Part shown: positions 6,140-34,074 of the stretch, one piece after another
Layout of the letters: every line of letters starts with the position of its first letter
How positions within the stretch are numbered: position 1 is the first letter of the stretch
Source: Acidimicrobiales bacterium
GTDB taxonomy: Bacteria; Actinomycetota; Acidimicrobiia; Acidimicrobiales; CATQHL01
Length of the DNA stretch: 64,000 nucleotides
Direction of reading: 5' to 3'
Assembly (NCBI GenBank): GCA_965209115.1
Contig: CBDBQD010000001.1
Span: 1,122,071-1,186,070 of the forward strand
The notes under the pieces: model-generated
Told to the model about the DNA's origin: nothing
The model's database searches: none
The model's input: only the letters and a program-made list of their open reading frames with translations
Made by a program: the position numbers and the translations under genes

Positions 6140-6180
6140 GCCGCTGAGGCTCGAACCCCTGGCAGGCGTCGCGGTGCGGG

Positions 6181-8058
6181 TCACTCGTCCAGCCAGGTCT
6201 CGGTCAGGAACGTCCGACCTTCCACCATGTTCAGCACGGGGCGGCCGTCCGGGGGCGGCAGCGTGATCCAGCCCAGGTTCTGGATCTCGTGGTGGTGGGG
6301 GATGAGCCAGCGCACCCAGTGCAGCCAGATGTTGTGCACGCCGCCGGCGAGGGCGCGGTTGACCTCCTCGGCGATCCGGCGCAACTCCTCGCGGTCGTCG
6401 GTGAGCGTGGCGCTCGCGAGGGCGGCGTCGATTTCCGGGTTGTTGATGCGCCCCATGTTGATGGCAATGAATCCCGTGTACGCCGAATCCCACCAGACGC
6501 GCTCGTTCTGGACGGTGGCGCCGTTGTGGTTCCGCCAGACGGCAGCCTGGAAGTTCCCCATGACGGCATTGAGGATCAGCGTTCCCTGATCGAGTTGCTG
6601 GATCTGCACGTCGATGCCGCAGTCGGCCCACATCTGGGCGAGCAGTTCCGCGCCGGTCCGGTAGTGGGCATCGGGAGTCGTGCCGAGGGTGATCGTGCCC
6701 GGATCTCCGATTTCGGCCCACAGCGCCCGACCCGCCTCGAGGTCGTAGCCCGGGAACCCGGTGTCGGGGAGGTAGCCGGGGGTGTTGGGGGCGAACGGGC
6801 CGTTGGCGATGTCGAACTCGCCGGCGGTGCGCAGCAGGTTGTAGGTCTCGTGGTCGGTGCAGTGAGCCAGCGCCTGCCGGGCGCGGATGTCGTCGAACGG
6901 CGCCCTGGCGTTGTTGAGCATCACGTAGAGGGTCTGGAGGAGGCTCTGCTCCTCGATGGTCCTGAAGTTCTCCCGGTAGTGCTCGAAGTCCAGGCCCAAG
7001 TCGTAGTGCGTCACTGTGATGTCACCGGTGTCCAGCGCCAGCCTGCGAGCGTCCGGCTCGACGTACGGGCGGTACACGATGCGATCCAGGTAGGGCAGGG
7101 TGCGGCCCTCGGCATCGGTCCGCCAGTAGTTCGGGTTGCGGTCCACGACGAGCTCGGCGTCGGGAATCCACGACTTGAAGACGAAGGGACCGGTACCGAC
7201 GGGATTGGCCGCCCCGTCGGGATCGTCGTGCTGGCTGGGGGCAGCGAGGTAGCCCATCTGACCGGTCATGCCGGCCGGCAGGCCGGCGAACGGGGCGTTG
7301 CTGTGGAAGTCCAGGGTGAGGTCGTCGATCACCTCCCAACCCTCCACGCGGTCGAACAACTGCTGGGCGAGAGGATTCGACATGACGCCCTGGAAGTGCC
7401 GGGCCAGAGCGTGGGCGTCGGCGGGTGTGCCGTCGTGGAACGAGATGCCCGGGCGCATTTTGAACGTCCAGGTGGTGAAGTCCTCGTTGGCCTCGAAGGA
7501 TTCCAGCAGGTACGGCCGGGGTGTCCCGGTCTCGTCCTCGATGACCAGCGGATCGAAGACCGCTCGCATCACGGCATGGCACGACACGGCACACTGGGTC
7601 GTCGTCGGGTTCCAGCCGTCGGGGGTCTCCGCCTCCACACCGAAGACGATCGTGCCGCCGTAGGCGGGCCCGGAGGTGGGCTCGGGTGCCGCCACGGGGG
7701 CGGGTGGCGGGGGCGGCGGATCACTCGGCGGGGGCGCTGCTTCCTCCGATGCCGGAGGGGGTGCCTCGGGCGGCGCGGCGGGCGCATCCGGTGCTGCCGA
7801 CGGCGCCTCGGGTGACGCCGGCGGGGTGTCGGGCACTGCTGCGGGTGCCTCGGGCGGCGCGGCGGGCGCATCGGGTGCTGCCGGTGGTGCCTCTGGCTCG
7901 GTTGGGGCCAGCGCCTCCGTGGCGTCGGTGGCCTGCGGGGCGGGTGCAAGGCTCGTGGGCGTGTCCTCGCCGCCTCCTCCGCACGCCGAGGCGATCAGCA
8001 GGACTGTGGCGGCCGTGGCGACGAGTCGGCGGACGCCATCCCTTGTGGTGCTGCGCAT
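6181..8058 (-). CDS. ABC substrate-binding lipoprotein, family 5 (peptide/nickel type), paralog 1
   Basis: Lipobox LLIASAC followed by a tether of about 95 aa rich in Pro/Ala, then a family-5 SBP body. GAGGGAGAGAGG lies upstream of the ATG. Confidence 0.9.
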   Translation of the reverse strand: MRSTTRDGVRRLVATAATVLLIASACGGGGEDTPTSLAPAPQATDATEALAPTEPEAPPAAPDAPAAPPEAPAAVPDTPPASPEAPSAAPDAPAAPPEAPPPASEEAAPPPSDPPPPPPAPVAAPEPTSGPAYGGTIVFGVEAETPDGWNPTTTQCAVSCHAVMRAVFDPLVIEDETGTPRPYLLESFEANEDFTTWTFKMRPGISFHDGTPADAHALARHFQGVMSNPLAQQLFDRVEGWEVIDDLTLDFHSNAPFAGLPAGMTGQMGYLAAPSQHDDPDGAANPVGTGPFVFKSWIPDAELVVDRNPNYWRTDAEGRTLPYLDRIVYRPYVEPDARRLALDTGDITVTHYDLGLDFEHYRENFRTIEEQSLLQTLYVMLNNARAPFDDIRARQALAHCTDHETYNLLRTAGEFDIANGPFAPNTPGYLPDTGFPGYDLEAGRALWAEIGDPGTITLGTTPDAHYRTGAELLAQMWADCGIDVQIQQLDQGTLILNAVMGNFQAAVWRNHNGATVQNERVWWDSAYTGFIAINMGRINNPEIDAALASATLTDDREELRRIAEEVNRALAGGVHNIWLHWVRWLIPHHHEIQNLGWITLPPPDGRPVLNMVEGRTFLTETWLDE

Positions 8059-8071
8059 TGCCTCTCTCCCT

Positions 8072-9910
8072 CTAGTCGAGCCAGGTCTCGGTCAGGAATG
8101 CCCGTCCGCGCAGGATGTTGAGAAGCTCGCCGCCGTCGGGCAGCGTGATCCGGGCGAGGTTCTTGACTTCCGGGCGATGGGGCAGGATCCAGCGCACCCA
8201 GTGCAGCCAGATGTTGTGGACCCCGTCGGCGAGGGCCCGGTTCACGTCCTCGGCGATCCGGCGCAACTCGTCGCGATCCGTCGTGACGGTGGCCCTGTCC
8301 AGAGCCGCGTCGAGGGGCTCACTCACGATGCGCCCCAGATTCAGGGCCAGACCGGTGGTGAAGTTGGAGTGCCACCAGACCCGCTCGCTGGCCAGGCTGA
8401 TCCCGTCGTGGTTCCGCCACAGGTTCACCTGGAAGTTCCCCATGACCGCGTTGCGAATCAGGGCGCCCTGGTCGAGTTGGCTGATCCGGACCTCGAGGCC
8501 GCAGTCCGCCCACATCTGGGCGAGCAGTTCCGCCGATGTCCGTTCGAATGGCTCGTTCGTGGTGCCGAGCGCGATGGCTCCGGGGTCCGGTAGCTGCGCC
8601 CAGAGGGCGCGACCGGCCTCGAGATCGAAAGCGGGGAATCCGGTGTCGGCCAGGTGGCCGGGTGTATACGGGGAGAAAGGCCCGTTGGCGATATCGAAGT
8701 TGCCCCCGGTTCGGAGCAGGTTGTAGGTCTCGTGGTCGGTGCAGTGGGCCAGTGCCCGTCGGGCATCGAGGTCGTCGAAGGGCGGCGCACCATTGTTGAG
8801 CAGCAGATGGTGCGTCTGCAGGAAGCTGCGCTCCTCCACCGTGTTGAAGTTCTCCCGGTAGTGGTCGAAATCCAGGCCGATGTCGGAATGGGTGACGTGA
8901 ATGTCGCCGAGTTGCAGAGCCACCTTCCGGGAGTCGGACTCGATGATGGGCCGGAACACGATCCGATCCAAGTAGGGAACGGTGCGGCCGGCGGCATCGG
9001 TCCGCCAGTATTCGGCGTTGCGCTCCACGACCAGTTCCTGATCGGGAATCCACGACTTGAACACGAAGGGGCCCGTGCCGACCGGATTGGCCGCGCCGTC
9101 GGGGTTGGCGTACTGGCTCGGGGCGGCCAGGTAGCCCAGTTGGCCGGTCAGGCCGCCGGGCAGGCCGGCGAACGAGACCTCGGAGTAGAGCACCAGCGTC
9201 AGATCGTCGATCACTTCCCAGCCCGTGAGCCGCCGCAGGGTCTGACCCGGAAGGGCGCCACTCAGCAGATTCTGGAAGTGGGTGGCAAGGGCGGCCGCGT
9301 TCGCAGGGGTGCCGTCGTGGAAGGTGATGCCGGGGCGCATCCTGAACGTCCAGACGGTGAAGTCCTCATTGGCCTCGAAGGACTCCAGCAGGTAGGGCTG
9401 CAGTTCGCCGTCGGTGTCGGTGATGGTCAGCGGATCGAAGACGGCGCGCATGATGGTGTGACACGACACGGCGCAGGACTGGGTTGCCGGATTCCAGCCG
9501 CCGGGCGTCTCGGCCTCGAGGCCAACGAACAGCGTTCCCCCGTAGACGGGTTCCGTGGTCGGCTCCGGCGCTGCCACCGGGGCCGGCGGCGGGGGTGGTG
9601 GGTCGCTCGGCGGCTGAGGCTCGGCCGCGGCCGGCGTGGGCGGTGGGTCGGGGTCGGCCGGTGGATTGGCGGGCTCGGGTGGTTCGCTCGGCGGCTGAGG
9701 CTCGGCCGCGGCCGGCGCGGGCGGTGGGTCGGGGTCGGCCGGCGGAGCGGTGGGCGCCGGCGGTGCGCCGGATTCCGGAGCCGGGCCGTCAGCCGGAACA
9801 GTCGGAGCCGGTGGGTCGTCCTGGCCGCCGCAGGCCGCGGCGAGGAGGAGCACGATGGCCGCTGCGGCGAGCAGGCGGAGGCTCGTTTGCTTTGGCACGC
9901 GTGGTCCCAA
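8072..9910 (-). CDS. ABC substrate-binding lipoprotein, family 5, paralog 2
   Basis: Lipobox LLLAAAC and a Pro-rich tether. The body is collinear with paralogs 1 and 3 (for example ...GRAFLTETWLD at the C-terminus). Start is TTG 9910 or GTG 9898. Confidence 0.85.
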   Translation of the reverse strand: MGPRVPKQTSLRLLAAAAIVLLLAAACGGQDDPPAPTVPADGPAPESGAPPAPTAPPADPDPPPAPAAAEPQPPSEPPEPANPPADPDPPPTPAAAEPQPPSDPPPPPPAPVAAPEPTTEPVYGGTLFVGLEAETPGGWNPATQSCAVSCHTIMRAVFDPLTITDTDGELQPYLLESFEANEDFTVWTFRMRPGITFHDGTPANAAALATHFQNLLSGALPGQTLRRLTGWEVIDDLTLVLYSEVSFAGLPGGLTGQLGYLAAPSQYANPDGAANPVGTGPFVFKSWIPDQELVVERNAEYWRTDAAGRTVPYLDRIVFRPIIESDSRKVALQLGDIHVTHSDIGLDFDHYRENFNTVEERSFLQTHHLLLNNGAPPFDDLDARRALAHCTDHETYNLLRTGGNFDIANGPFSPYTPGHLADTGFPAFDLEAGRALWAQLPDPGAIALGTTNEPFERTSAELLAQMWADCGLEVRISQLDQGALIRNAVMGNFQVNLWRNHDGISLASERVWWHSNFTTGLALNLGRIVSEPLDAALDRATVTTDRDELRRIAEDVNRALADGVHNIWLHWVRWILPHRPEVKNLARITLPDGGELLNILRGRAFLTETWLD

Positions 9911-10013: not shown

Positions 10014-11864
10014 CTACTCGGTCCAGGTCTCGGTGACGAACGCCCGTCCTTCGATGAGGTTGAGGATCTCGCGCCCGTCGGGAAGTGTCAGCAGCGCCAG
10101 GTTTTGGACGTGGTCCTGATGTGGCAGCATCCAGAGCGACCAGTTCAGCCAGACGTTGTAGACGCCCGCGGCGAAGACCCGGTTGATCTCCTCGGCGAGT
10201 GCTCGCAACTCGTCGAGGTCGGTGGTCCGGGCGGCTGCATCCAGTGCCGCGTCGAGCGCGGGATCCACGATTCGTCCGAAGTTGACGGCCAGACCGGCGG
10301 CGTACTCCGAATGCCACCAAGTGCGCTCGTTCTCGAGGCTGGCGCCGTTGTGGTTCCGCCACAGGAACGTCTGGAAGAGCCCGAAGACGGCGTTGGTGAT
10401 GAGGGTTCCCTGGTCCACCTGGGTGATCTGGGTGTCGATGCCGCAGTCGTTCCACATCTGTGAGATCAGCTCGGTGGTCGTCCGGTTGAAGGAGTCGTTC
10501 GTCGTGCCGAGTTCCACCACGCCCGGATTGTCCAGCTGGCTCCAGAGGGCACGTCCTGTGTCGGGGTCGAAGGTGGGGAACCCGGAGTCGGCGAGGTAGC
10601 CGGGCGTGTTCGGCCCGAAGGGGCCGTTGGCGATGGGAGTGTTGCCGCCGACTCGCAGAAGGTTGTAGGTCTCGTAGTCGGTGCAGTGGGCCACCGCCTG
10701 CCGGGCGCGAATGTCGTTGAAGGGCGGGTTGGCGGCGTTCAGCATCATGTAGGTGGTCTGGAAGTAGCTTCCCTCCTCCACCACCTTGTAGCGCTCCCTG
10801 TACTCGTTCGCCTTGAGGGCGGAGTTGATGTGATGGACGTCCAGGTCGCCCGACGCCAGGGCCAGATCGCGGGTCTCCTGGTCGGGGATGGGGCGGAACA
10901 CCACGCGGTCGAGATACGGGAGTCGGCGTCCTTCGGCGTCGGTCTTCCAGTAGTTGGGGTTGCGGTCCGCCACCAACTCCCTGTCGGGCGTCCAGGACGT
11001 GAAGATGAAGGGACCGGTGCCGACCGGCCTGATGGCCCCGTCGGGGTCGGCGTACTGGCTCGGCGCGGGCAGGTAGCCCAACTGGCCGGTCAGCAGCGCG
11101 GGCAGACCGGCGAGGGGACCGGCGGTTCGCACTTCCACGGTCAGGTCGTCGATCACCTCCCAGCTCTCCCAGCGGCGCACGATCAGGCCGGTGAGGGTTC
11201 CCCCCTTCAGATTGTCGAAGTGGACGGCGAGGGCGGCGCCGTCGGCCGGCGTGCCGTCGTGGAACGTGATGCCGGGCCGCATCTTGAGCGTCCAGACGGT
11301 GAAGTCCTCGTTGGCCTCGAAGGACTCGAGCAGGAAGGGCTCGGGTGCACCGGACGGGCCTTCGATCGTGAGCGGGTCGAAGATAGCGCGCATCACGGTG
11401 TGGCAGGCCACGGCGCACTGCGTGGTCGCCGGATTCCAGCCCTGGCCGGTCTCAGCCTCCAGGCCGAACACCAGCGTTCCCCCGTAGACCGGCTCGGCGA
11501 CGGGCTCGGGTGCTGCCACCGGCGCGGGTGGGGGCGGTGCCGGCGGGTCGTCCGCTGCCGGCGGTGGTGCGGGCGGGTCGCCGGGGGCCGGTGGCGGTGC
11601 CGGCGGGTCGCCGGGTGCGGGTGGCGGTGGGGGCGGGCCGTCTGCTGCCGGCGGCGGTGGGGGCGGGTCGCCGGGTGCGGGAGGCGGTGGGGGCGGGTCG
11701 CCGGGCGCGGGCGGTGCCGGAACCCCGACGGTCTCGGTCACCGGCGCCGCAACGTCTCCAGAGTCCCCCCCGCAGGCGGCGGCCACGAGGATAACGATCA
11801 GCGCCACCGCCGGCAGGCGTCGGGTCCGGCGCCTGCGAGCGTTACGCAGCGAAGTGGTCGTCAT
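10014..11864 (-). CDS. ABC substrate-binding lipoprotein, family 5, paralog 3
   Basis: Start at ATG 11864 (MTTTSLRNARRRRTRRLPAVALIVILVAAAC) with GGAAGGGGGAG upstream. PAPGDPPxPP-type tether. Confidence 0.85.
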   Translation of the reverse strand: MTTTSLRNARRRRTRRLPAVALIVILVAAACGGDSGDVAAPVTETVGVPAPPAPGDPPPPPPAPGDPPPPPPAADGPPPPPPAPGDPPAPPPAPGDPPAPPPAADDPPAPPPPAPVAAPEPVAEPVYGGTLVFGLEAETGQGWNPATTQCAVACHTVMRAIFDPLTIEGPSGAPEPFLLESFEANEDFTVWTLKMRPGITFHDGTPADGAALAVHFDNLKGGTLTGLIVRRWESWEVIDDLTVEVRTAGPLAGLPALLTGQLGYLPAPSQYADPDGAIRPVGTGPFIFTSWTPDRELVADRNPNYWKTDAEGRRLPYLDRVVFRPIPDQETRDLALASGDLDVHHINSALKANEYRERYKVVEEGSYFQTTYMMLNAANPPFNDIRARQAVAHCTDYETYNLLRVGGNTPIANGPFGPNTPGYLADSGFPTFDPDTGRALWSQLDNPGVVELGTTNDSFNRTTTELISQMWNDCGIDTQITQVDQGTLITNAVFGLFQTFLWRNHNGASLENERTWWHSEYAAGLAVNFGRIVDPALDAALDAAARTTDLDELRALAEEINRVFAAGVYNVWLNWSLWMLPHQDHVQNLALLTLPDGREILNLIEGRAFVTETWTE

Positions 11865-15574: not shown

Positions 15575-16402
15575 GTGCAGGATGACGAATCAGGGAGAGC
15601 GCCCGTGGACCTACAACTGACCGACAAGGCCGCCATCATCACCGGCGGGAGCATGGGTATCGGCAAGGCCGTCGCCGAGGGGCTGGCCGCCGAGGGTTGC
15701 GATGTCGCCATCGTGGCTCGGGGGCAGGAGTTGCTGGAGGATGTGGCGGCGGACATCGCCGCGGCCAGCGGCAGGCGCTGCCTCCCGCTGGTGGGCGACA
15801 TGAGCAGCACTGAGGACGCCAACCGGGTGGTGGATGCCGCCGCCGAGGCGTTCGGCGGGCTGGACATCTGCGTGCCGAACGCAGGCAGCTCGCCCGGCGG
15901 GCTCCTCGAGGAGCTGACCGACGACCAGTGGAACGCCAGCCTCCAGCTCAAGTTCATGGGCCACGTGCGGACGGTGCGCGCCGCGGTGCCGCACCTGCGA
16001 GCCCGCGGCGGGGGCTCCATCGTCATGGTGGTCGGGAACGACGGTCTCAAGCCCTCGTACTGGGAGATGACCGCCGGCGTCGCCAATGCCGCCGACATCA
16101 ACTTCGCCTCCTCGGTTGCCGAGCAGTACGGCCGCATCGGCATCCGCTGCAACACCGTCAACCCCGGGCCTGTGGCGACCACCCGTTGGGACTACTTGGA
16201 GGAGGCCATGGCCCGCGACAAGAAGATAAGCCGGGAGCGGGCCCACGAGATCACCATCGACAGCCTGCCGCTGGGGACGATCTGCACGGCCCAGCAGGTG
16301 GCGGACGTGGTCGTCTTCCTGGCCTCACCACGCGGCGGCTACGTCAACGGCGCGCACATCCTCCTGGACGGAGGCCAGCGCAAGGCGCTGATGGACGTCT
16401 GA
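15575..16402 (+). CDS. SDR family oxidoreductase
   Basis: Rossmann motif TGGSMGIGKA; length typical of an SDR. Confidence 0.85.
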   Translation: MQDDESGRAPVDLQLTDKAAIITGGSMGIGKAVAEGLAAEGCDVAIVARGQELLEDVAADIAAASGRRCLPLVGDMSSTEDANRVVDAAAEAFGGLDICVPNAGSSPGGLLEELTDDQWNASLQLKFMGHVRTVRAAVPHLRARGGGSIVMVVGNDGLKPSYWEMTAGVANAADINFASSVAEQYGRIGIRCNTVNPGPVATTRWDYLEEAMARDKKISRERAHEITIDSLPLGTICTAQQVADVVVFLASPRGGYVNGAHILLDGGQRKALMDV

Positions 16403-16414
16403 GCCAAGCTCGGA

Positions 16415-16525
16415 CCCGGATCCGTCATCCCGGCGGAAGGCCCCGTCATCCCGGCCTGCCCCGTCATCCCGGCCTGCCCCGTCATCCCGGCCTGCCCCGT
16501 CATCCCGGCGCAGGCCGGGATCCAT
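16415..16525 (+). repeat. Tandem array of 5 CCGTCATCCCGGC half-sites (period 18-20 bp) ending in the full hairpin CCCGGC-GCAG-GCCGGG + ATCCAT
   Basis: Read directly from the sequence. Begins 13 bp after the SDR stop. Same architecture as 52607-52677. Confidence 0.9.
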
Positions 16526-16591: not shown

Positions 16592-17275
16592 CTACGCCGA
16601 TCGCTTGTCCCGCCGCGCCCAGATACGGTCGATGTACGCCACCGCCTCGGGTGTCTTGCAGGAGGTCTCGCCGTGGTCCACGGCGACGGGGCCGATCCGC
16701 CGGGCGGAGGCGGTCGCGCTCTCCCGCAGTGACTCGTTGCGGCCGCCGATGGCGATGAGGGCGCCGTTCATGCAGTGACGGACCCGGTTGGCGGCCGTCG
16801 CGATGCCGGATTCGATGCTCTCGAGTCGCATCTCGAAGTACCCGTCAGGCAAACCCTTGCCGGCGAGGGCCTGTTGCGCCACGAGGGTCCAGCCGGCCGC
16901 GACCAGCCACTCGCCGTCATCGGCGGTCCAGTCCTCCGCGCAGCCGTCCAGGAACGGCGTGCGGGCGACGAACGCGGCCATCTCGTCGATCAGGACATAG
17001 TTGCCGAGGTCCGCAACCCAGGCCTCGATCTCGGACCGCCCGGCCTGCGCCGGGTCGGCGACGGCAAGAGCCAGCACGCGGGCGTCGTGGTTCCCGCTCG
17101 CCCACAGCGCCCTTGCCAGGTCGTGATCGGGCCCGAGCTTCTTCCCCATCTTGCGGAGGTGGGCGAAGCTGACGCCGAACATCGGCTCGTTCACGCCGTG
17201 ACGGGCGTAGACCTTGCGGTTCTGGGCCGTGCCCAGCGCCTCCAACTCCGCCAACACGCGGCCGGGATCGCTCAT
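16592..17275 (-). CDS. DNA alkylation repair protein (AlkD-like HEAT-repeat family)
   Basis: Start at MSDPGRVLAELEALG. NRKVYARHGV...FGVSFAHLRKMGKKLG...LARALWASGNHDARVLA resembles the DNA-alkylation-repair family. Confidence 0.6.
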   Translation of the reverse strand: MSDPGRVLAELEALGTAQNRKVYARHGVNEPMFGVSFAHLRKMGKKLGPDHDLARALWASGNHDARVLALAVADPAQAGRSEIEAWVADLGNYVLIDEMAAFVARTPFLDGCAEDWTADDGEWLVAAGWTLVAQQALAGKGLPDGYFEMRLESIESGIATAANRVRHCMNGALIAIGGRNESLRESATASARRIGPVAVDHGETSCKTPEAVAYIDRIWARRDKRSA

Positions 17276-17627
17276 CGCCGATGCCGCTCCTTCCGGGTGC
17301 GCCGTTTCGCGGCGTGTACCACTCGGTCCTGTGCAGACCTCTCGCCTGCGCACCAGGCACCACGATATGTGATCGCCCTGAGGCCGCCGCAGCCGAGCGG
17401 CGTACGTCTGCCGAGGCCGTGGCGGATCGGGCCGACGAGGACCCCCACGCCGAGCCGACCGTCCGCTACCTCATCGACCCGTTCCGCGACTACACCCTCC
17501 ACTTCGCCGAAGCCAAGATCACCCTCAACGTCGCCGACCTCCTCACCGCCGCCGGCCAGCCTTGCTGAGCGTCGCTCGGCACCGTCCCGCGGGTCGGCCG
17601 CCAGAAGCGCGGGCTATCCTTACATCG

Positions 17628-18710
17628 ATGGACAGTGTCTGCCCGCAGCGAGCGTGGGTGGAGGCGCTGCGCCCGGGTACGTTCTTCCGGACGCGCGACG
17701 TCCCTGGTCCGACGCGTGGCGCGGTGTCGACGTTCCTGAGCCGGGAGGCGTCCAAGCCCGCGGGTCGGGCCGTTTGCCGGCGGGTCGCGCCGAACCTGTA
17801 CTGGAAGCCCCGTCGTAACGAGCGTGGCGTGCCGATCGAGCCGGACTACCTGGCCCTTGCGGGGGCCATCGCCGGCCGCGGTCACGGGATGGCGGGCCAC
17901 GACGCCGGAATCGTCGCCGGGTGGCTGACGCACACCGTCTCGGCGACCGCGACGGTGGCTGTGGTGGGTGAGCCGAGCGTGCGCAGGCCGCTGCCGACGC
18001 TCCTCCTGCGGGCGCGGGCGAACACGCGCCGGCGCGCCCTCACTCCTCTCGAGGTCACGTATCTCGAAGCGATCGCCTCCTTCGACGAGTGTGCGGAGGT
18101 TGACTGGCCTGCCGCGCTGCGGATCACCGAACGGCAGGTCGGGCATCGCGGCCGGTTGCGCACACGGCTCATGCTGGCGGTCGCTGCGGCCGAGCGCGGT
18201 CCGGGCTCGCTCGGGCTGCGTGGACGACTGGGCGAGTTCTGCGACGTGGTCTCGGGCCTGCCGCCTCCGGCCGCACCGGTTCTGCCCCCGCCGCCGCGGC
18301 CGGTGTTGGATCGCCGCTTGGTGACCGCCGCCGATCTGCCGTCGTGGATGGCGGAGTCGCCCGGATCGCGCATCGGCGCGCTCTCCACGTTCGTCAACCA
18401 CTGGGCGCATTATCCGCACCATCGCGCCGCGTTGTGCGCCGCGCCGCCGCGGGGGGAGAACCGTCTGGATCTGGCGCGGATCGCCGCCACGGTGCACGCC
18501 CTCTGCGACAGGGACGCCGTCGAGGTTCCACACTGGGTGTGGGCGAACCGTTGGCACGAGGACGTCGCGGTGCACAGCGCCGGCACGGTCACCCCGGAAC
18601 TCCGGGAGATCGCGCCGGCCGCCTGTCGCCTTCACCGGGTCTGGTTCGCCGATGACCACATCATGTGCATCTCCGTCCACGGATTCTGGAACCGTCGGCA
18701 CGCCGCATGA
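17628..18710 (+). CDS. AbiEi-like winged-helix protein with an extra C-terminal domain of unknown function
   Basis: The N-terminus WVEALRPGTFFRTRDVPGPTRGAVSTFLSREASKPAGRAVCRRVAPNLYWKP has the AbiEi-antitoxin N-domain pattern. The last 150 aa or so are W/H-rich and unrecognised. Confidence 0.5.
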   Translation: MDSVCPQRAWVEALRPGTFFRTRDVPGPTRGAVSTFLSREASKPAGRAVCRRVAPNLYWKPRRNERGVPIEPDYLALAGAIAGRGHGMAGHDAGIVAGWLTHTVSATATVAVVGEPSVRRPLPTLLLRARANTRRRALTPLEVTYLEAIASFDECAEVDWPAALRITERQVGHRGRLRTRLMLAVAAAERGPGSLGLRGRLGEFCDVVSGLPPPAAPVLPPPPRPVLDRRLVTAADLPSWMAESPGSRIGALSTFVNHWAHYPHHRAALCAAPPRGENRLDLARIAATVHALCDRDAVEVPHWVWANRWHEDVAVHSAGTVTPELREIAPAACRLHRVWFADDHIMCISVHGFWNRRHAA

Positions 18711-19375
18711 CGGAAGTGAGGTTCACGCGCGACGAACTGCTCGCGCTGTTTGCCGCCGTCGATGAGCTTCTGCCGGAGGGCGATCCGCTCCGGGTTCCCG
18801 TCGGCGGCGCCGTGGCGATCATGGCGGTCCAGCCGGGGCGCGTATCCAGCGACGTGGACGTTTTCCTGCCCACGCTGCCGCCAGACCTGCGCCAGGCGGT
18901 CACCGCCGTGACCGAGCGCCATCGACTGCCCGAGGGATGGTTCAACACCACCGCCGGCGAGATGGGGCTTCCGCCGTTCGAGTTGGACGACGAGCCGTTC
19001 TTCGAGGGGAATCGGCTGGTGGTCGAAGTCGTCGATCCCACCTCGAAGCTCCTGCTCAAGCTCAACGCAGCACGGGCCAAGGACCGCGAAGACATTCTCG
19101 TACTGATGGAAGCGACAGGGTTCACCTCACAGGACGATCTGCTTCTGTTGATAGATGCGCACTTCGACGAGTATCCCGGGTCCAGCCTTGACCGCCTCTG
19201 GATGCAGGGAGTCGCCCGGGAAGCGGCGCTCGAGTTCCGGCGGCGGGCGTGGAATATCGAGGGCCCTGACGACACCGGCGGCGCGGCCCCAAGTCCTGTC
19301 GACGAGGAGGAGTTGCTGCGCCAATGGGGCCTCGAAGTCGATTCCCCGCCGGACGGACCTCAACCCGATCGGTGA
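18707..19375 (+). CDS. Nucleotidyltransferase-fold protein (minimal NTase; AbiEii/DUF6036-like)
   Basis: ATGA overlap with the upstream gene. VGGAVAIMAVQPGRVSSDVDVF matches the G-x-x...S-x-D-x-D NTase motif. KLLLKLNAARAKDREDILVL is a helix typical of these NTases. Confidence 0.5.
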   Translation: MTEVRFTRDELLALFAAVDELLPEGDPLRVPVGGAVAIMAVQPGRVSSDVDVFLPTLPPDLRQAVTAVTERHRLPEGWFNTTAGEMGLPPFELDDEPFFEGNRLVVEVVDPTSKLLLKLNAARAKDREDILVLMEATGFTSQDDLLLLIDAHFDEYPGSSLDRLWMQGVAREAALEFRRRAWNIEGPDDTGGAAPSPVDEEELLRQWGLEVDSPPDGPQPDR

Positions 19376-19661
19376 CCGATGCAGCGGGTGTGTCTGCTGG
19401 TCAGCGAGGGTTGTCGGCGTCGGCGGGGAGGATGCGCAGGGGACGGCCGCTGAACGACCGCCGTGCCGCAGTTCGACAGGACATGAGGCATCGCATAAGG
19501 CTGGGAGGCCTCGCGGGCGATGCTGATTGATCTCGAGATGAGGAGCCGCATCCGAGACTTGGTAGGGGGAATTCGGAAGGCCGGGATCGAGTTCGCGTTT
19601 GAGCGAGACGCAGGACATGATAAGGCAGATTCGCGTGATGGGGTTGGTACGGTGAGCGGCC

Positions 19662-20528
19662 GTGGCTGGGTATCGGCCGAAGCTGATTGAGGTGGCGCTG
19701 CCTCTGGCCGCGATCAATGCGGAGGCGGCTCGGGAGAAGTCGATACGGCACGGGCACCCGTCGACATTGCATCTGTGGTGGGCTCGGCGGCCGTTGGCGG
19801 CGGCCCGGGCGGTGATCTGGGCTTCGCTGGTGGACGATCCGTCCGGGGACGAGTCGCTGACCGCTGCCGAGCAGGACGCTGAGCGGGCTCGGCTGTTCGG
19901 CATTCTCACGCAGCTCGTGCAGTGGGAGAACTCGAACAACCCGGACGTGCTGCCGGCGGCTCGGGCCGAGATCGACCGGTGCTTCCCGGATGGGCCGCCG
20001 GCGGTCCTGGACCCGTTCGCCGGGGGCGGTGCGCACGATGCAGCAGGGCAGCATCGCCCCGGTCGACATGGCACAGTCGACAATCGGGCCGGGGATGAAG
20101 GTGTTCTCCCGCTACAGCAAGGTCGTGGAGGCCGCCGAGTCGGCGATGTCGGTGTCGACGGCTCTGGCGATCATCAACGACGTGCTGGGCGGGATCCTCG
20201 ATGGGGCGGAGGCCGAACTCGACGCCCCGACGCGGTTCGCGCTGACTTGGTACTCGCAGTACGGCTACGAAACCGCGCCGTCGGGTGACGCCGACATCCT
20301 GGCTCGGGCCAAGGGCACGTCACTGGAGGGGATCGAGGAGGCAGGCATCGGCCAGAGGCTCGTGCCGGTCAGACTCGCCTCTACGAGCGTTCGGAGCTGG
20401 CCGAGGGTTGGTCGCCGGCGAGCGACAACGGCTGGGCCGCCGAGGCCGGCACCTACAACGCCCTCATCGCCGCCTGGCCTGCCCTGCGGGCCGCCGACTC
20501 GGTCCCCGAGGCCCCCACGCTCCTCTAA
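19662..20528 (+). pseudogene. DUF1156-type DNA methyltransferase remnant (large internal deletion plus frameshifts)
   Basis: N-terminus [45 protein letters not shown]...DPFAGGG, then a jump at about 20031-20055 into the C-terminal region ([21 protein letters not shown]...) in another frame. A third frame ends ...LYERSELAEGW...TLL*. Confidence 0.7.
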
Positions 20529-20613
20529 TGCACCTGTTCGGGCAGGTGAGAACGTCGGGCCGCTGCCCGGATCGAGATCATCGGTCGGTCGGGCTGACCT
20601 ATTCGCGCACACT

Positions 20614-20993
20614 CTAGTCCCAGCGGACGAGGATCGGCCCTCCGCGTCCCAGGCTGCCCACCAGTGCGGCGAAATCACCGGTGTCCGCCGTGAGAATGTC
20701 ATCGGCAAGCTGTGTTGCGAGCACCACGAGGTGCGCGTCCACCACATCGGTACCGCCGGACCTCCGGAGCAGGCCGCCAACTCGTGTCGCGTCGGCATGC
20801 TCAAACGGGTGCACATCCACGGATCGGAGGAACCGGCCGAGCCGGACCTGTTGAGGAGGGCTTCGCAGGACCTGTGCCACGACTGGAGCGCTCGTTCGAA
20901 GCGGCTCCCCTCGTGCGACGGCCTGATTTACGACCGCAGAGACCTCGGCCTCACCGCGGTCTACGCGATCAGCGGTCCCGCGTCGAGGATCAC
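20614..20993 (-). pseudogene. PIN-domain toxin (VapC-like) with an N-terminal frameshift
   Basis: The GTG overlaps the antitoxin stop (GTGA). It reads VILDAGPLIA, then an in-frame TAG at 20961-20963. The rest of the PIN domain (VDRGEAEV...DVVDAHLVVLA...ILTADTGDF) is in the -1 frame. Confidence 0.6.
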
Positions 20994-21223
20994 CTATTGA
21001 AGTAGCGGCGCCCCGCCTCGGCGACCGCTTCGGGATCGGGATGTCCGAACTCCTCGATCCATTCCTGTTCGAACTCGCGAAGCGCCTGCCGCCGGCGGCT
21101 GTGGGCTGCGAGCAGTCGGAGGCCTTCCCGGACCGCAGCTGACTGGCTGCCGAACTCCGCGGCCAACTCCTCAAGCAGCCGGGAATCGTCGCCGTTCAGT
21201 CGGATCGTGGTGGCCTTGGCCAT
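20990..21223 (-). CDS. Ribbon-helix-helix (CopG-like) antitoxin
   Basis: 77 aa. MAKATTIRLNGDDSRLLEELAAEFG fits a beta-strand followed by a helix, the RHH pattern. It lies directly upstream of the PIN gene. Confidence 0.7.
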   Translation of the reverse strand: MAKATTIRLNGDDSRLLEELAAEFGSQSAAVREGLRLLAAHSRRRQALREFEQEWIEEFGHPDPEAVAEAGRRYFNR

Positions 21224-21351
21224 GGCTCCAGGATACTTGGATGTGACGTTGCGAGACTACGCGGCCCCGCTCGGGCGGGCGCTGTCGCAGGGGCGGTCAT
21301 AGTGTCTGCGGCGCGGCCTCGCCGCTGCCTCAGGAGGTTCGCCGCATCGTC

Positions 21352-22582
21352 ATGAGCAACAGCGAGCGCGTCGGGCGGGCGCTGCCGGCGGCGGCGGGGA
21401 GGGCGGCAGCGGTGGGCAGCGCCTTCCCGGTGGTGACTTCGACACGCAGTTCACGTTCGCGCAGGCGCTGACCGAGGCCGCGGCGGCGGTGCCGAACGTG
21501 GTGGTGCTGGTGACGGTCCCGGCGTCGGACATCGAGGCGGGCGGCGACCGGGGGCGCACGGCGTTGGAGCGGCTGAAGAACGTGGTGACCCGCACGGCGG
21601 CGCAGTGGCAGCCGGCGTCGCCGGACGAGTCGTTCGAGATCGTGCGGCGGCGGCTGTTCGATCCGGTGCCGGCGGAGCGGGCGAGGGTGCGCGACGGGGT
21701 CGTCCGGGCGTTCAGCGAGATGTACCGGGACCGGCCCGGCGATTTCCCGTCGGGCGCCGGCGAGGTCGACTACCGCAAGCGGATGGAGCTGTCGTACCCC
21801 CTGCACCCCGAACTGTTCGACCGGCTGTTCGGGGACTGGTCGGCGCTGGACCGCTTCCAGCGCACCCGGGGGGTGCTGCGGCTCATGGCGCTGGCGATCT
21901 CGCAGCTCTGGCAGCGCGGCGACCGGTCGCTGCTGATCATGCCCTCCAGCCTGCCCATGGACTCCGGCACGCTCGTGAGCGAGTTGAGGAAGTACCTGGA
22001 GGAGGGCTGGGACCCGGTCATCAAGGCCGATGTGGACGGCGCGAACTCCCTGCCGCTGCGCATCGACAACGAGACGCCGCACTTCGGGCGCCTGTCGGCC
22101 ACCCGGCGCGCCGCACGCACCGTCTACGTGGGCTCGGCGCCCCGGCCCGACGCCAAGCGGGGCGTGGACCTGCGCTCGGTGGTGCTGGGGTGCGCCCAGC
22201 CCGGCGAGCCGACCGGCCAGTTCGCCGACGCGCTGAAGCGGCTGTCGGGCGAGGCGACGCACCTGCGCACCTGTACGTGGACGGCAACCAGTACTGGTAC
22301 TCGCTGCAGCCCAACGTCACCCAGGTGCTGATCCCCACACAGAAGCCGGGCACCCCAGAGGTGGACTGGCAGACCGCCAGGGCGAGCACCGACGGCGACA
22401 TCGGCGCCCGCGTGAGTCGCAAGCTCGCCAGCAGCGAAGAACTGATCGCCCGCCTCGGCTCCGACCTCGAACTCTCCCTCGAACTCCGAGCCAACAAGCC
22501 CGACGGCTACGACGACGCCACCCAACGAATCGTCTCCGAGAACGCCGCCAACCTCGGCGCCACCGCAAGCGAGTTCGAGTAG
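21352..22582 (+). pseudogene. DUF499-type ATPase remnant (5' truncated, frameshifted, internally deleted)
   Basis: Lacks the Walker region. Carries FDTQFTFAQALTEAA...FEIVRRRLF...HPELFDRLF...TRGVLRLMA. Frameshifts at about 21428 and 22258-22273. The C-terminal ...IVSENAANLGATASEFE* follows shortly after YVDGNQYWYSLQPNVT. Confidence 0.7.
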
Positions 22583-22625
22583 GCGCCGGCGTCAATCGCA
22601 GACGCTGGCCGGTTCGCTGATCGTT

Positions 22626-22674
22626 GGATTCCGGCCCTGGATCGAGTCCGGGGCCGGCTCTGCGCCGGAATGAC
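22626..22674. repeat. REP-like compound element GGATTCCGGCC-N27-GCCGGAATGAC
   Basis: Read directly. Near-identical to 24424-24472 and related to 25787-25837. Confidence 0.85.
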
Positions 22675-22698
22675 GTCGGGTTCGGCGTGCCGGAGCCA

Positions 22699-22821
22699 GT
22701 CGGAGACCGCGCGGCGGGGGATGCAGAGGGCGGGCGGTCCGGGAGGCGGGCTCGGCTCCTCGGCGGTCTCTGCCGCCGGCGAACCGGACGTGGCGGCACC
22801 TTCGGGTAGCCGCGGGCCGCC
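22699..22821 (-). pseudogene. 3'-terminal fragment of a YHYH-lipoprotein gene
   Basis: GGPRLPEGAATSGSPAAETAEEPSPPPGPPALCIPRRAVSD parallels the C-terminus of the intact gene (GGPQLPEGAVTSGSPAAQTADD...PPALCLPRLGVCD). Confidence 0.6.
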
Positions 22822-22948
22822 GGCCGGTATTGCTGTCGTCGAGGAGTTCCGACGCAGCGGCCGAGGCATCGACGACCGATGGCCGGGGCCGTCCTCGCGG
22901 GAACTCGACGCTCTGAGCCGCGTGGATTCGACATCCTGCACTCCTCAC

Positions 22949-22985
22949 GGGTGCAAATCGTAGGTAGCACTTACGGATCGCACCC
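22949..22985. promoter_or_regulatory. Imperfect palindrome GGGTGCAAATCGTAGGT-AGC-ACTTACGGATCGCACCC upstream of the ATPase gene
   Basis: 13 of 17 arm positions pair. Low-GC patch ending 19 bp before GTG 23004. Confidence 0.3.
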
Positions 22986-23003
22986 ACGAGGTAGGATGCG
23001 GGA

Positions 23004-24224
23004 GTGATCGAGCGCGAGATAACACCGCATCTGGTGCGCCTGTTCGGGCAGTATCCGTTCGTGACGGTGACCGGACCGCGCCAGTCCGGCAAGACCACAC
23101 TGTGCCGCTCAGCGTTCGGCGAGTTGGCGTACGCGAACCTCGAGGATCCTCAGGTGCGCGCCTATGCGGAGCGTGACCCGCGCGGCTTCTTGGCGGAGTT
23201 CCCCGACGGCGCGGTCCTCGACGAGGTCCATCGCGTGCCGGACCTGCTGTCGTACCTGATGGTGCTGGGCGATGAAGCGGGCCGGCCCGGCATGTTCGTG
23301 CTGACCGGCAGTGAGCAGTTCGGCCTGACAGGGGCGGTGAGCCAGTCACTCGCCGGCCGCACGGCACTGCTGCGGCTGTTGCCGTTCTCGCTGGCCGAGT
23401 GCCGCCGGGCCGGCGCCTCCGGACGGATCGAGGAAATCCTCTACGACGGCTGCTACCCGCGGATCCACGATCGGGGCCTCAACCCCACCGAGGCGCTCGG
23501 CGCCTACTGGGAGACCTATGTCGAGCGCGACGCGCGCCGGATCGGGCGGATCCGCAACCTCAGCCAGTTCCGGGACTTCGCCGGCCTGTGCGCGGGCCGC
23601 GTCGGCCAGCTGCTCAACCTGACGAGTCTCGGCGGCGACGCCGGTGTGTCGCACCCCACAGCGGCCGAATGGATCGCCGTCCTCGAGGCCAGCGACATCG
23701 TCTTCCGGCTCCGGCCCCACCACGCCAACACCCGCAAGCGCCTCACGCGCTCGCCGAAGCTCTACTTCCATGACGTCGGCCTGGCCGCCTACCTGTTGGG
23801 GATCAGCGATCCGGACCAGCTGGTCCGCCACCCCCTGCGCGGCGCCCTGTTCGAGAACGCGGCCATTGTGGAGGCCGTCAAGCACCGCTACAACAGGGGC
23901 ACCACCGCGTTCCTTCCCGACATCGCCTTCTACCGGGACCACAAGGGGTTCGAGGTCGACCTGCTCTACCCGACGGGCGACGGGCTTGCCGCCATCGAGA
24001 TCAAGTCCGGCCGCACTGTCGCCTCGGACTGGTTCGCCGGCCCCGCCCGGCTCGCGGGCACCCTGCCGGGAATCACCGCGCAGGCCGTCGTGTACGGCGG
24101 CACGGAGCGCCAGCACCGCACCGCTGGCGACGTCGTGCCGCTCGGGCAGTTCGCGGAGTTCCTGGCCAACCTGGACGTGCCGTCCTCGCATCTCGCACCA
24201 GACGGCCTCGACCTCCTGCCCTGA
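23004..24224 (+). CDS. AAA-family ATPase with DUF4143 C-terminal domain (AAA_14/DUF4143 type)
   Basis: Walker A GPRQSGKTTL and Walker B AVLDEVH. LTGSEQF...LAGRTALLRLLPFSLAE is typical of this family. GAGGTAGGA lies upstream of the GTG. Confidence 0.85.
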   Translation: MIEREITPHLVRLFGQYPFVTVTGPRQSGKTTLCRSAFGELAYANLEDPQVRAYAERDPRGFLAEFPDGAVLDEVHRVPDLLSYLMVLGDEAGRPGMFVLTGSEQFGLTGAVSQSLAGRTALLRLLPFSLAECRRAGASGRIEEILYDGCYPRIHDRGLNPTEALGAYWETYVERDARRIGRIRNLSQFRDFAGLCAGRVGQLLNLTSLGGDAGVSHPTAAEWIAVLEASDIVFRLRPHHANTRKRLTRSPKLYFHDVGLAAYLLGISDPDQLVRHPLRGALFENAAIVEAVKHRYNRGTTAFLPDIAFYRDHKGFEVDLLYPTGDGLAAIEIKSGRTVASDWFAGPARLAGTLPGITAQAVVYGGTERQHRTAGDVVPLGQFAEFLANLDVPSSHLAPDGLDLLP

Positions 24225-24235
24225 TCGTTCGTCCG

Positions 24236-24381
24236 GATCGTCGTCGCCGAGAGCAAGATCACTCTCACCGTCGCCGACATCCATGTGCGAAGTCGGCCGT
24301 GGTGCCGTTTTTGCCTCCTCCGCGTTGAATCGTCTCGGAGACCGCCTCCAACCTCGGCGCCCCGCAAGCGAGTTCGAGTAG
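24236..24381 (+). pseudogene. Second, more degraded DUF499 3'-end remnant
   Basis: Reads ...KITLTVADI... and then, across frames, IVSETASNLGA / ASEFE*. This parallels ...IVSENAANLGATASEFE* at 22527-22582. Confidence 0.45.
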
Positions 24382-24655
24382 GCCTGGCGGCAGTCGCAGA
24401 TGCTGGCCGGTTCGCTGATCGTTGGATTCCGGCCCCGGATCGAGTCCGGGGCAGGCTCTGCGCCGGAATGACGTCGGGTGGGGCGCGCCGGCGTCAGTCG
24501 CAGACGCCGAGGCGGGGGAGGCAGAGGGCGGGCGGTTCGGGCGGTCGGGTGGGTGGTTCGGACGGTGAGGTCGGTGCCTTGGCGGGATCGTCGGCGGTCT
24601 GCGCCGCCGGCGAACCGGACGTGACGGCGCCCTCGGGGAGTTGCGGGCCACCGGC
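24327..24655. repeat. Right copy of the approximately 300-bp direct repeat
   Basis: See 22527-22825. By eye, identity is roughly 80-90% with several indels. Confidence 0.85.
24424..24472. repeat. REP-like compound element
   Basis: GGATTCCGGCCCCGGATCGAGTCCGGGGCAGGCTCTGCGCCGGAATGAC. Confidence 0.85.
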
Positions 24656-25783
24656 GTGCGGGTCGCCGGGGCGCAGCTCGCCGCGGAACCAGGGGCCGAG
24701 GATGTAAGGGAAGGTGTCGGTGAAGCTGCCGTCGCCGTTCTGGATGCGGGTGACGTGGTAGTGGTAGCCCAGGTCGTCGTGGGAATGTCCGTTGAAAGCA
24801 TCGAGGGCGTGCGGCGCCCCGTCGTCGAGGCCGATGTCGAACCAGTAGTCCTCGAAGAATGCGCCCGCAGGGACCTCCGCGGTGGTGGGTCCGGGGGCAG
24901 GCGCCGGCACCACGCCGCCGGCGGGGTCCAGCGAATCGGCCAGGCGGCAGGTCCGGCGGCCGGCTTCGGCGCACCCTGTCGCCGATCCCGCCGTGTCGTA
25001 GTCCCGGAGCCGCCAGGAGCTGCGCGCCAGGAGTTCCAGGTCGGCCCAGGGGCCGTGCACCGGGTAGCCGTCGGCGGCGAAGCCGTAGACGGGGGAGTGC
25101 CGGGCGCCGTCGTCGCCGAGGTGCAGCGCCAGGCACTCCGGGTAGACGTGCGGTGAGGACTCGTCGGCCGCCGGCCCGGCACAGGAGAACCCGTCGTCGC
25201 CCACCGCGCCGGGCGCCACCGTGCGCCAGACGCCCTCGCCGCGGTAGGTCCCGCCGTTGCTCCAGTTGGCGATGGGGGCGCCGGTCACCCACAGGCCGAT
25301 CGGGGCCCGCCCGGTGGCTGTCGGTGCCGTTGCCGGGGACGGTTCGAGGGGGAACAAGCCCGCCGTCACCTCCCCGCTGCCCGCTTCCCTCGCCACCCGA
25401 ACCGCCACGTAGAGCTCGGCGTCGATCCGCAGCACCTCCAGCGCTGTCGCCCGCACCGCCACCTCCGTCGGCGCCGGCGGCTCGGGAGTGCCTTCCAGCA
25501 CGATGAAGTCGCCGGTGTCGATGGGCTCGTAGTCCTCCCGCAGGTCGAAATGGTGGTTGCGGCGCCACCACGGCGCCGCCGGCTCGCCTCCGAAGCCCGC
25601 CAGGGCGTCGGCGGGAACGAGCCAGGCGGTCAGCAGAGGCCCGCCGGTCGCCGGGTCGCTGAGGGCAGAAGGCCCCGAGGCCGCGGCGCAGCCGGCGGCC
25701 GCCACCATCCCGACGACGGCGAGCGCTCGCGTCAGACGGGCCAGCGAGTCACGGGACCGCTGTGATGCGGGTCTCATCTCCAT
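24494..25783 (-). CDS. YHYH-domain lipoprotein
   Basis: Lipobox VAAAGC. HSHDDLGYHYHVT motif near the C-terminus, followed by a Pro-rich tail ending CLPRLGVCD. Confidence 0.75.
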   Translation of the reverse strand: MEMRPASQRSRDSLARLTRALAVVGMVAAAGCAAASGPSALSDPATGGPLLTAWLVPADALAGFGGEPAAPWWRRNHHFDLREDYEPIDTGDFIVLEGTPEPPAPTEVAVRATALEVLRIDAELYVAVRVAREAGSGEVTAGLFPLEPSPATAPTATGRAPIGLWVTGAPIANWSNGGTYRGEGVWRTVAPGAVGDDGFSCAGPAADESSPHVYPECLALHLGDDGARHSPVYGFAADGYPVHGPWADLELLARSSWRLRDYDTAGSATGCAEAGRRTCRLADSLDPAGGVVPAPAPGPTTAEVPAGAFFEDYWFDIGLDDGAPHALDAFNGHSHDDLGYHYHVTRIQNGDGSFTDTFPYILGPWFRGELRPGDPHAGGPQLPEGAVTSGSPAAQTADDPAKAPTSPSEPPTRPPEPPALCLPRLGVCD

Positions 25784-25786
25784 AGT

Positions 25787-25837
25787 CTGGATTCCGGCCC
25801 CGGATCGAGTCTGGATTCCGGCTTTCGCCGGAATGAC
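25787..25837. repeat. REP-like compound element containing the full hairpin GGATTCCGGC-TTTC-GCCGGAATGAC
   Basis: Read directly. Lies between the YHYH gene start and the stop of the glutamate-synthase-family gene. Confidence 0.85.
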
Positions 25838-25859
25838 GGGTGTTCATGGCTTGGAATTA

Positions 25860-34021: not shown

Positions 34022-34047
34022 CCTTGCGGGTGCCGGGTTCCTCCGAC

Positions 34048-34074
34048 GTCATTCCGGCGTAGGCCGGAATCCAG
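34048..34074. repeat. REP-like hairpin GTCATTCCGGC-GTAG-GCCGGAATCCAG
   Basis: Read directly. Opposite orientation to the copies at 22.6, 24.4 and 25.8 kb. Confidence 0.85.

Follow-up and report, generated by a model that had tools for sequence, protein, structure and literature searches.

A 64,000-nt stretch of the genome of an Acidimicrobiales bacterium (contig CBDBQD010000001.1; hereafter the window) carries two short tandem arrays in which the first half of a hairpin repeat is reiterated and the last copy alone is completed into the whole hairpin. We read these arrays as Ssn-related motifs (SRMs), a family of extragenic hairpins named after the small GIY-YIG nuclease Ssn, whose 5′ halves were duplicated in place, the duplications being tied to Ssn. 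To this overall reading we give a probability of roughly 0.6. The half-site array would then be a common variant architecture of a known family, undescribed as far as we found: the main text of the paper that defines the SRMs (PMC11893778) does not contain the words 'tandem' or 'slippage' and uses 'array' and 'duplicat' only in unrelated senses, and a shallow search of the literature returned no earlier description.

Array 1 consists of five exact copies of the 13-mer CCGTCATCCCGGC with starts at 16422, 16443, 16461, 16479 and 16497 (extent 16422-16509, spacings 21, 18, 18 and 18 nt), the last of which continues into CCCGGC-GCAG-GCCGGG and then ATCCAT (16504-16525). Array 2 has three such copies, starting at 52607, 52628 and 52649 (extent 52607-52661, spacings 21 and 21 nt), and its last copy runs into CCCGGC-GAAG-GCCGGG and ATCCAT, ending at 52677. 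Reading the sequence therefore bears out the copy numbers and the single terminal hairpin given in a preliminary description of the window, together with the 21-nt period of array 2; the terminal stem, drawn there with 6 bp, has 8 bp in both arrays (ATCCCGGC/GCCGGGAT). On the plus strand array 1 reads, from 16420, ATC CGTCATCCCGGC GGAAGGCCC, followed by three times CGTCATCCCGGC CTGCCC and finally by CGTCATCCCGGC GCAG GCCGGGAT CCAT, and array 2 reads TTC CGTCATCCCGGC GGAGGCCCC, CGTCATCCCGGC GAAGGCCCC and CGTCATCCCGGC GAAG GCCGGGAT CCAT. Each incomplete unit of array 1 keeps the 5′ flank CGTC and the 5′ arm ATCCCGGC and lacks the 3′ arm, and each of the two spacers of array 2 consists of the loop, then 3 nt from the start of the 3′ arm, then CC. 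Tandem Repeats Finder reports a period of 18 with 3.9 copies and 100% matches at 16440-16509, and a period of 21 with 3.0 copies and 97% matches at 52607-52668. The exact 13-mer has 8 matches in the window, all 8 of them inside the two arrays; tolerating as many as 2 mismatches raises the count to 20, where 8.4 are expected, and none of 100 shuffles reaches 20.

The three identical internal spacers of array 1 (16456-16497 region) begin with CTGC, the complement of the terminal loop GCAG, and for this reason the penultimate unit pairs with the 3′ arm over 12 bp in the predicted single-stranded DNA (ssDNA) fold. An inversion of the loop followed by expansion is a possible origin of these spacers. 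Both arrays also give rise to the spurious open reading frames (ORFs) that had been pointed out before, the minus strand of array 1 encoding RRDDGAG and MTGQAG repeats, and array 2 encoding AFAGMTG repeats on its minus and VIPAKA repeats on its plus strand. Three Logan assemblies made from different runs contain array 2 in identical form, and array 1, with the same three CTGCCC units and terminal hairpin, is found in a Joint Genome Institute (JGI) metagenome contig that differs by a nearby single-nucleotide polymorphism. This contig was reached through a gene neighboring array 1; an exact-protein look-up of the short-chain dehydrogenase/reductase (SDR) encoded next to the array gave no record. 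Since four independent assemblies reproduce the arrays (three for array 2, one for array 1), collapse or expansion during assembly, which the preliminary description had named as a possible undoing of its proposal, is ruled out. A scan of metagenomes with a conserved 49-nt flank of array 1, made in search of strain variants, returned 0 matches.

The arrays are compared here with the Neisseria Transformation Sequence (NTS), CGTCATTCCCGCGMAVGCGGGAATCYRG, which encompasses the dRS3 repeat and for whose relatives in other phyla a degenerate SRM pattern was defined (Chenal et al., Nat Commun 2025, PMC11893778). The cognate SsnA is a 94-aa single-domain GIY-YIG protein (cd10448) that binds the hairpin as ssDNA only, and neither the reverse strand nor double-stranded DNA (dsDNA) nor RNA, and nicks a few bases upstream of CGTCAT, the published cut distance being about 3-4 nt (PMC11893778). 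The C right after the palindrome is the base most critical for binding and the three bases 5′ of the palindrome are the most critical for cleavage, while the loop is dispensable and can be extended (PMC11893778).

Turned into a regular expression and run on the window, the published pattern HGTCWYN(0-2)YYVSBRHN(0-5)WNVSBRGN(0-2)RNCYNB (PMC11893778) matches exactly at both terminal hairpins and at two further single hairpins, the T-variants described below. The window contains 5 matches in all, compared with a mean of 1.06 and a maximum of 4 in 100 dinucleotide shuffles. Both terminal hairpins have the form CGTC-ATCCCGGC-loop-GCCGGGAT-C, that is, they possess the oriented CGTC(AT) head and the C directly after the palindrome that SRMs require. 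Because the published pattern matches exactly, the hairpin can be placed in a known family, and judged by its sequence each array is very probably an SRM, an extragenic hairpin repeat of the NTS/dRS3 type, with the terminal hairpin CGTC-ATCCCGGC-GNAG-GCCGGGAT-C as its putative working unit. The earlier suggestion that a protein recognizes the site thereby gains a concrete candidate, the GIY-YIG ssDNA nuclease Ssn.

The likeness to the NTS and other SRMs (PMC11893778) extends from the order of elements, CGTCAT, an 8-bp arm, a loop of about 4 nt, the second arm and C, to the occurrence as multi-copy, extragenic and oriented repeats and to the position of the same motif beside small GIY-YIG genes in other genomes. 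The stem differs, being ATCCCGGC here and ATTCCCGC in Neisseria, and so does the host, here an uncultured high-GC bacterium; the main difference is the tandem repetition of the 5′ half ahead of one complete hairpin. Neisseria dRS3 (ATTCCC-N8-GGGAAT) forms the palindromic core of the NTS, and the Neisseria intergenic mosaic elements (NIMEs) are intergenic arrays built around dRS3. Their units are segments of 50-150 bp bounded by complete dRS3 hairpins, whereas the array unit described here measures 16-24 nt and contains one arm only. Structures comparable to NIMEs do occur at Micropruina loci (metagenome-assembled genome, MAG, L064 at 6063-6456; L010; L023; L017), where half-site arrays lie within tandem modules of about 150-230 nt that are repeated two to three times and recall the Neisseria mosaic elements.

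The repeat had been called REP-like, after the repetitive extragenic palindromic (REP) sequences, and this holds insofar as it is an extragenic palindromic repeat with a repeated 5′ arm. Short, GC-rich and multi-copy, it has much in common with the REPs and bacterial interspersed mosaic elements (BIMEs) mobilized by REP-associated tyrosine transposases (RAYTs; Y1/HUH) and with IS200/IS605 elements, where extragenic hairpins are likewise read as ssDNA, a small nuclease cuts beside the hairpin, and copies cluster at gene 3′ ends. Those systems use an HUH enzyme, a GTAG head and inverted pairs (REP doublets forming hairpins, REPINs), as opposed to the GIY-YIG enzyme of the SRMs and the direct half-repeats seen here. 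Every copy in the two arrays has the head CGTC or CGTCAT in place of GTAG (GT[AG]G), and the units within each array are all direct repeats on one strand with no inverted doublets. The same motif sequence recurs across phyla, which fits the SRM family, and a tblastn search that covered the 64 kb of the window detected no Y1-transposase-like (RAYT) ORF. A REP, REPIN or BIME mobilized by a RAYT is accordingly a highly improbable identity. CRISPR arrays were also considered and rejected: they have repeats of at least about 23 nt and unique spacers of similar length, while the repeat here is 12-13 nt long, the spacers measure 5-9 nt, and those within one array are identical or nearly so.

The arrangement is by no means confined to the window. 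A scan of one genome per species for CGTCATCCCGGC-N4-12-CGTCATCCCGGC found at least 118 genome places in many phyla; the matches listed include Micropruina (many places), Nocardia, Propionicimonas, Acidimicrobiales, Streptomyces, Sphingomonadales, several Gammaproteobacteria, Burkholderiales, Chloroflexi, Planctomycetes, Bacteroidota (Pedobacter) and Elusimicrobia. Among these listed matches, 103 of 126 arrays run directly into a complete hairpin and most of the other 23 do so after one or more degenerate half-sites, and array size reaches 8 exact units, or 13 if one mismatch is allowed. For the canonical, biochemically characterized stem CGTCATTCCCGC, metagenome contigs yielded at least 120 places, with 108 of the 121 listed arrays ending in a complete hairpin. 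A series of 5′ halves capped by a single complete hairpin thus characterizes the motif family as a whole and does not depend on the sequence of the stem, and the design is not the rarity for which it was first taken. All periods within the searched limits of 16-24 nt occur, those of 19-21 most often, so that multiples of three, although true of this window, are not a rule. In viral contigs, searches for 5′-half and 3′-half arrays gave 10 and 11 matches, all of them chance or coding repeats without a CGTCAT head or a terminal hairpin; half-site arrays seem to be absent from phage contigs.

We retrieved 238 loci selected by their arrays and evaluated their context with crude, ORF-based gene calls, which make the following figures approximate. 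In this set 82% of the arrays fall between genes, gene 3′ ends are their neighbors in 196 cases and 5′ ends in 116, and relative to the gene whose end they follow they lie in sense orientation 103 times and in antisense orientation 93 times. These numbers bear on the idea that the element acts at the RNA level, the hairpin being a terminator or 3′-end stabilizer of the SDR mRNAs that is tuned by the half-sites. The preference for gene 3′ ends speaks in its favor, as do the stable 8-bp GC stem and the location of both arrays on the sense strand shortly after stop codons. The random orientation towards the adjacent gene means, on the other hand, that oriented half-sites cannot be serving transcripts. 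Neither array shows a terminator-like match or a T-run, the hairpins being followed by the tails ATCCATGCTTGCC and ATCCATTGGCCGG, and an intrinsic terminator was therefore rejected. A search against Rfam that used gathering thresholds and covered the entire window gave no match, and one around array 1 with relaxed E-value limits gave only chance-level ones (E > 6). Array 2 lies between co-directional genes 193 nt apart, and Ssn does not bind RNA (PMC11893778). Taken together, a role in RNA is improbable.

The duplication is almost entirely restricted to one side. Upstream 5′ half-sites (at least one) accompany 42 of 249 hairpins (17%) that lie in the fetched loci outside any array by which a locus had been selected. 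In a symmetric test, the 12-nt 5′ part of each hairpin was sought upstream of it and its own 12-nt 3′ part downstream, which gave 53 cases on the 5′ side and 26 apparent cases on the 3′ side. Of the latter, 23 turned out to be 5′ arrays read on the opposite strand (repeated GCCGGGATGACG), leaving at most 3 weak 3′ candidates. As the motif is a near-perfect palindrome, a process driven by structure should duplicate either arm, and yet duplication is seen almost exclusively on the 5′ side. Orientation is given to the motif solely by its flanks, which Ssn reads.

The spacers indicate where the units came from. They are usually alike within an array and unrelated between arrays, and a model that builds each spacer from the beginning of the terminal loop (in some cases extended by as many as 3 nt of the 3′ arm), followed by the tail of the local 5′ flank, explains 73.5% of positions, compared with 54.2 ± 1.2% when flanks are swapped between arrays. 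Spacers drawn from local sequence imply that the units were made in place by tandem duplication and not inserted from elsewhere. In the 42 junctions that could be fully reconstructed, the right boundary most often coincides with the last base of the 5′ arm and never passes the third base of the 3′ arm, positions in between also occurring, and the left boundary lies 0-12 nt upstream of CGTCAT. The units are thus likely local tandem duplications of a segment delimited in this way. It is these boundaries that leave CGTCAT and the 5′ arm in every unit and the 3′ arm in the last unit only. Array 2 of the window is of the type "loop + GCC + C(C)", its right boundary being placed 7 nt beyond the 5′ arm, at 3 nt into the 3′ arm, and its left one at -1 or -2. 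The same type is found in a related MAG contig (L038) that is about 88-91% identical to the window and carries an array orthologous to array 1, which directly follows the stop codon of the corresponding SDR gene and precedes the same gene downstream. The orthologous array has three units with GCAGGCCC spacers (GCAG-type, 20-nt period), compared with five units in array 1. This comparison of array lengths between relatives, of a kind that the preliminary description had recommended for strains, indicates that the site is old and that copy number and spacer type change quickly.

A set of sites for a dsDNA-binding regulator, similar to iterons, would consist of a 12-nt half-site recognized at a spacing of about two helical turns. 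Periods clustering at 18-21 bp and a perfectly conserved half-site between variable spacers agree with this, but the spacers are mere copies of the local flank, the terminal complete hairpin is almost always needed, and the arrays are placed at gene 3′ ends and not at promoters; a promoter scan at both arrays found no promoter-like sites. Such regulator sites can hardly account for the arrays.

The chief rival is neutral slippage independent of Ssn, in which DNA synthesis stalls at the GC-rich hairpin and the end of the nascent strand re-anneals to a short repeat upstream, so that the arrays would be mutational debris unconnected with any protein. The preliminary description had already suggested replication slippage, and one part of this proposal stands, namely the local duplication of flank and loop head. 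Slippage is compatible with spacers of local origin, with the 100% identity of the units of array 1 and with the variation of copy number between relatives, and some junctions do contain a GGC or CCG microhomology of 2-4 nt. The distribution of junction microhomology across the 42 arrays is nevertheless dominated by very short matches (0 nt in 18, 1 nt in 11, 2 nt in 5, 3 nt in 5, 4 nt in 2 and 7 nt in 1), so that 29 of 42 clean junctions have 0-1 nt. In addition, a near-perfect palindrome offers no reason for duplicating the 5′ half only, 3′-half arrays are almost absent, the strongly oriented features are just the flanks that Ssn reads, and arrays cluster beside ssn genes. Plain slippage would explain the turnover of the arrays but not their one-sidedness, and as a full account we consider it unlikely.

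The connection to the nuclease comes from loci in which motif and gene occur together. In the 238 array-selected loci (1.74 Mb in total) we found six that contain an ORF of about 95 aa consisting of a GIY-YIG domain only. These ORFs are 54-63% identical, over the whole length or a truncated part, to the one in an Elusimicrobia contig (L080; PF01541, E = 1.7e-15), and in all six loci a half-site array lies within about 150 nt of the GIY-YIG gene, upstream, downstream or on both sides. In the Elusimicrobia contig (1250-1900) a half-site array and further hairpins precede the 96-aa GIY-YIG gene; downstream of the gene come two T-variant hairpins in inverted orientation and another copy of the array, with an identical spacer (GCGTATTGTT). 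The presence of one array on both sides of this ssn gene indicates that whole arrays can be copied as a unit. The family of small GIY-YIG proteins is large, with at least 8000 clusters in a homolog search. Among 120 protein matches (P0001-P0120), most close homologs are encoded on very short contigs of about 0.5-3 kb, as would be expected if flanking hairpin repeats break short-read assemblies.

Published biochemistry, which as regards strand-specific binding and cleavage of ssDNA covers only the Neisseria and Wolbachia homologs (PMC11893778), allows us to outline how Ssn might bring about such duplications. When the CGTCAT strand becomes single-stranded, an Ssn of about 95 aa would bind the hairpin and nick a few bases upstream of CGTCAT. 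The duplications would be by-products of the repair of these nicks on the 5′ side, hence their restriction to the 5′ half. By one route, a staggered break between the nick and the hairpin apex could be filled in and rejoined, which predicts little microhomology, as observed; by another, a polymerase could run off the nicked template, re-prime in the exposed loop and re-copy the segment. Ordinary slippage would afterwards alter the copy number. Short tandem duplications with a nick on one side, a hairpin on the other and little microhomology are likewise produced by hairpin-protected flap expansion and by staggered-nick fill-in (target-site duplication), a likeness that serves as pure analogy for the mechanism. 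We put forward nick repair as the source of the 5′-only duplication tentatively. Somewhat more doubtful is the wider picture, in which the 5′-half arrays would be genomic scars of Ssn nicking the chromosome's own motifs, with occasional re-copying from nick to apex on transient ssDNA.

The finished arrays may in turn offer the enzyme a particular substrate. Ssn still cleaves a motif whose two halves are carried by separate strands, and in vitro a concatemer of first halves is cut to unit lengths when a second-half oligonucleotide is added (PMC11893778). By analogy, each half-site of an array in ssDNA could pair in turn with the single 3′ arm and so form a ladder of alternative cut sites, a rather speculative notion.

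Several observations weigh against attributing the duplications to Ssn. The window has no ssn-like ORF, and the cognate enzyme is assumed. Ssn occurs mainly in Gram-negative bacteria (PMC11893778), whereas the nearest relatives of the window appear to be uncultured high-GC bacteria. On the left, the duplications start anywhere from 0 to 12 nt upstream of CGTCAT and not at a constant distance of about 3-4 nt, where the published cut lies; exactly 3 nt fits only 7 of the 42 clean junctions, and these fully reconstructable junctions come from 42 of 212 arrays. Stalling at the hairpin combined with slippage could yield similar products. A polarity in which the distal units are more decayed was considered as well and is not claimed, because it appears in the selected set (60 versus 7) and is gone in 13 unselected arrays.

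The Ssn family was described only in 2025. Added here is a reproducible and strongly one-sided duplication pattern on the cutting side of the nuclease, which extends across phyla and stem variants, occurs beside ssn genes and turns over between close relatives. If the arrays are indeed scars of Ssn nicking, they would give the first view of Ssn at work in vivo outside Neisseria transformation and would make hundreds of intergenic sites vary rapidly in length. The motif might, moreover, multiply from them, given that whole arrays are found copied on both sides of the Elusimicrobia ssn gene, and each array would represent a natural split substrate with one guide and many targets, several first halves competing for one second half. 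The general pattern is moderately interesting in that it suggests a testable in-vivo footprint of a newly discovered nuclease. From a practical point of view, the arrays create spurious ORFs (VIPAKAGI, AFAGMTG and RRDDG repeats), are likely points of contig breaks and copy-number errors in short-read assemblies, and could serve as fast strain markers.

The features of the window are collected in Table 1.

Table 1. Half-site arrays, further hairpins of the family and adjoining genes, in positions of the window.
Feature	Position	Strand	Remarks
Array 1, four incomplete units	16423-16497	+	CGTCATCCCGGC at 16423, 16444, 16462 and 16480; spacers GGAAGGCCC, then CTGCCC three times
Array 1, terminal complete hairpin	16498-16525	+	CGTC + ATCCCGGC (16502-16509) + loop GCAG + GCCGGGAT (16514-16521) + CCAT; exact SRM pattern match
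Array 2, two incomplete units	52608-52649	+	CGTCATCCCGGC at 52608 and 52629; spacers GGAGGCCCC and GAAGGCCCC
Array 2, terminal complete hairpin	52650-52677	+	CGTC + ATCCCGGC + loop GAAG + GCCGGGAT + CCAT; exact SRM pattern match
Single SRM hairpin, T-variant CGTCATTCCGGC-GTAG-GCCGGAATCCAG	34047-34074	+	Without half-sites; exact SRM pattern match
Single SRM hairpin, T-variant CGTCATTCCGGC-GAAA-GCCGGAATCCAG	25811-25838	-	Exact SRM pattern match; second copy of 3′ part after it
Long-loop SRM variant	24422-24473	-	Same T-variant arms around inner hairpin CCCCGGAC-TCGA-TCCGGGG
Second long-loop SRM variant	22624-22675	-	Direct orientation relative to 24422-24473
SDR gene upstream of array 1 (adh_short)	15575-16402	+	Context only, outside the element
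DNA-alkylation-repair gene downstream of array 1	16592-17275	-	Convergent; context
SDR gene upstream of array 2 (adh_short)	51793-52554	+	Context only
677-aa gene of unknown family downstream of array 2	52748-54781	+	Co-oriented; context

Both arrays follow plus-strand SDR genes, as had been reported, the first half-site beginning 20 nt past the stop codon in array 1 and 53 nt past it in array 2. Array 1 sits between two gene 3′ ends, those of the convergent SDR and DNA-alkylation-repair genes. The meaning that the preliminary description attached to the SDR neighbors did not hold up. The two SDR proteins are only 30% identical, so the arrays were not copied along with a gene, which rules out a segmental duplication of SDR gene and array, and elsewhere arrays lie at gene 3′ ends in either orientation. 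The link to SDRs is coincidental, and the position after stop codons reflects the general placement of such repeats at gene 3′ ends and is not specific to SDRs. Within the window itself the finding is ordinary: members of a known repeat family are located at the 3′ ends of two genes.

In total, the window contains four canonical and two long-loop SRM copies, all outside long ORFs. In the minus-strand T-variant hairpin the 3′ part is doubled (25775-25838), with two copies of GCCGGAATCCAGAC separated by TCGATCCGGG; this is the sole duplication on the 3′ side within the window, and it resembles a hybrid of the short-loop and long-loop forms. The two long-loop hairpins flank a gene for an AAA_14/DUF4143 ATPase (23004-24224) in a motif-gene-motif layout, and their type of inner hairpin, CCCCGGAC-TCGA-TCCGGGG, is also present within a C-variant motif of an Acidimicrobiales MAG (L015). 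About 7.3 kb of the window (17270-24604) is absent from the related MAG contig L038, in which the sequences on either side are separated by 138 nt, and one end of this indel adjoins the long-loop hairpin at 24422-24473. Apart from the SRMs, the window contains long GC-rich tandem repeats with periods of 18-90 nt, multiples of three, at 7760-7897, 9597-9796, 11533-11746, 29591-29751, 34367-34470 and 61697-61853, which probably encode protein repeats rich in Gly, Ala and Pro. The first of them abuts a predicted tRNA-Arg(CCG) at 7886-7966.

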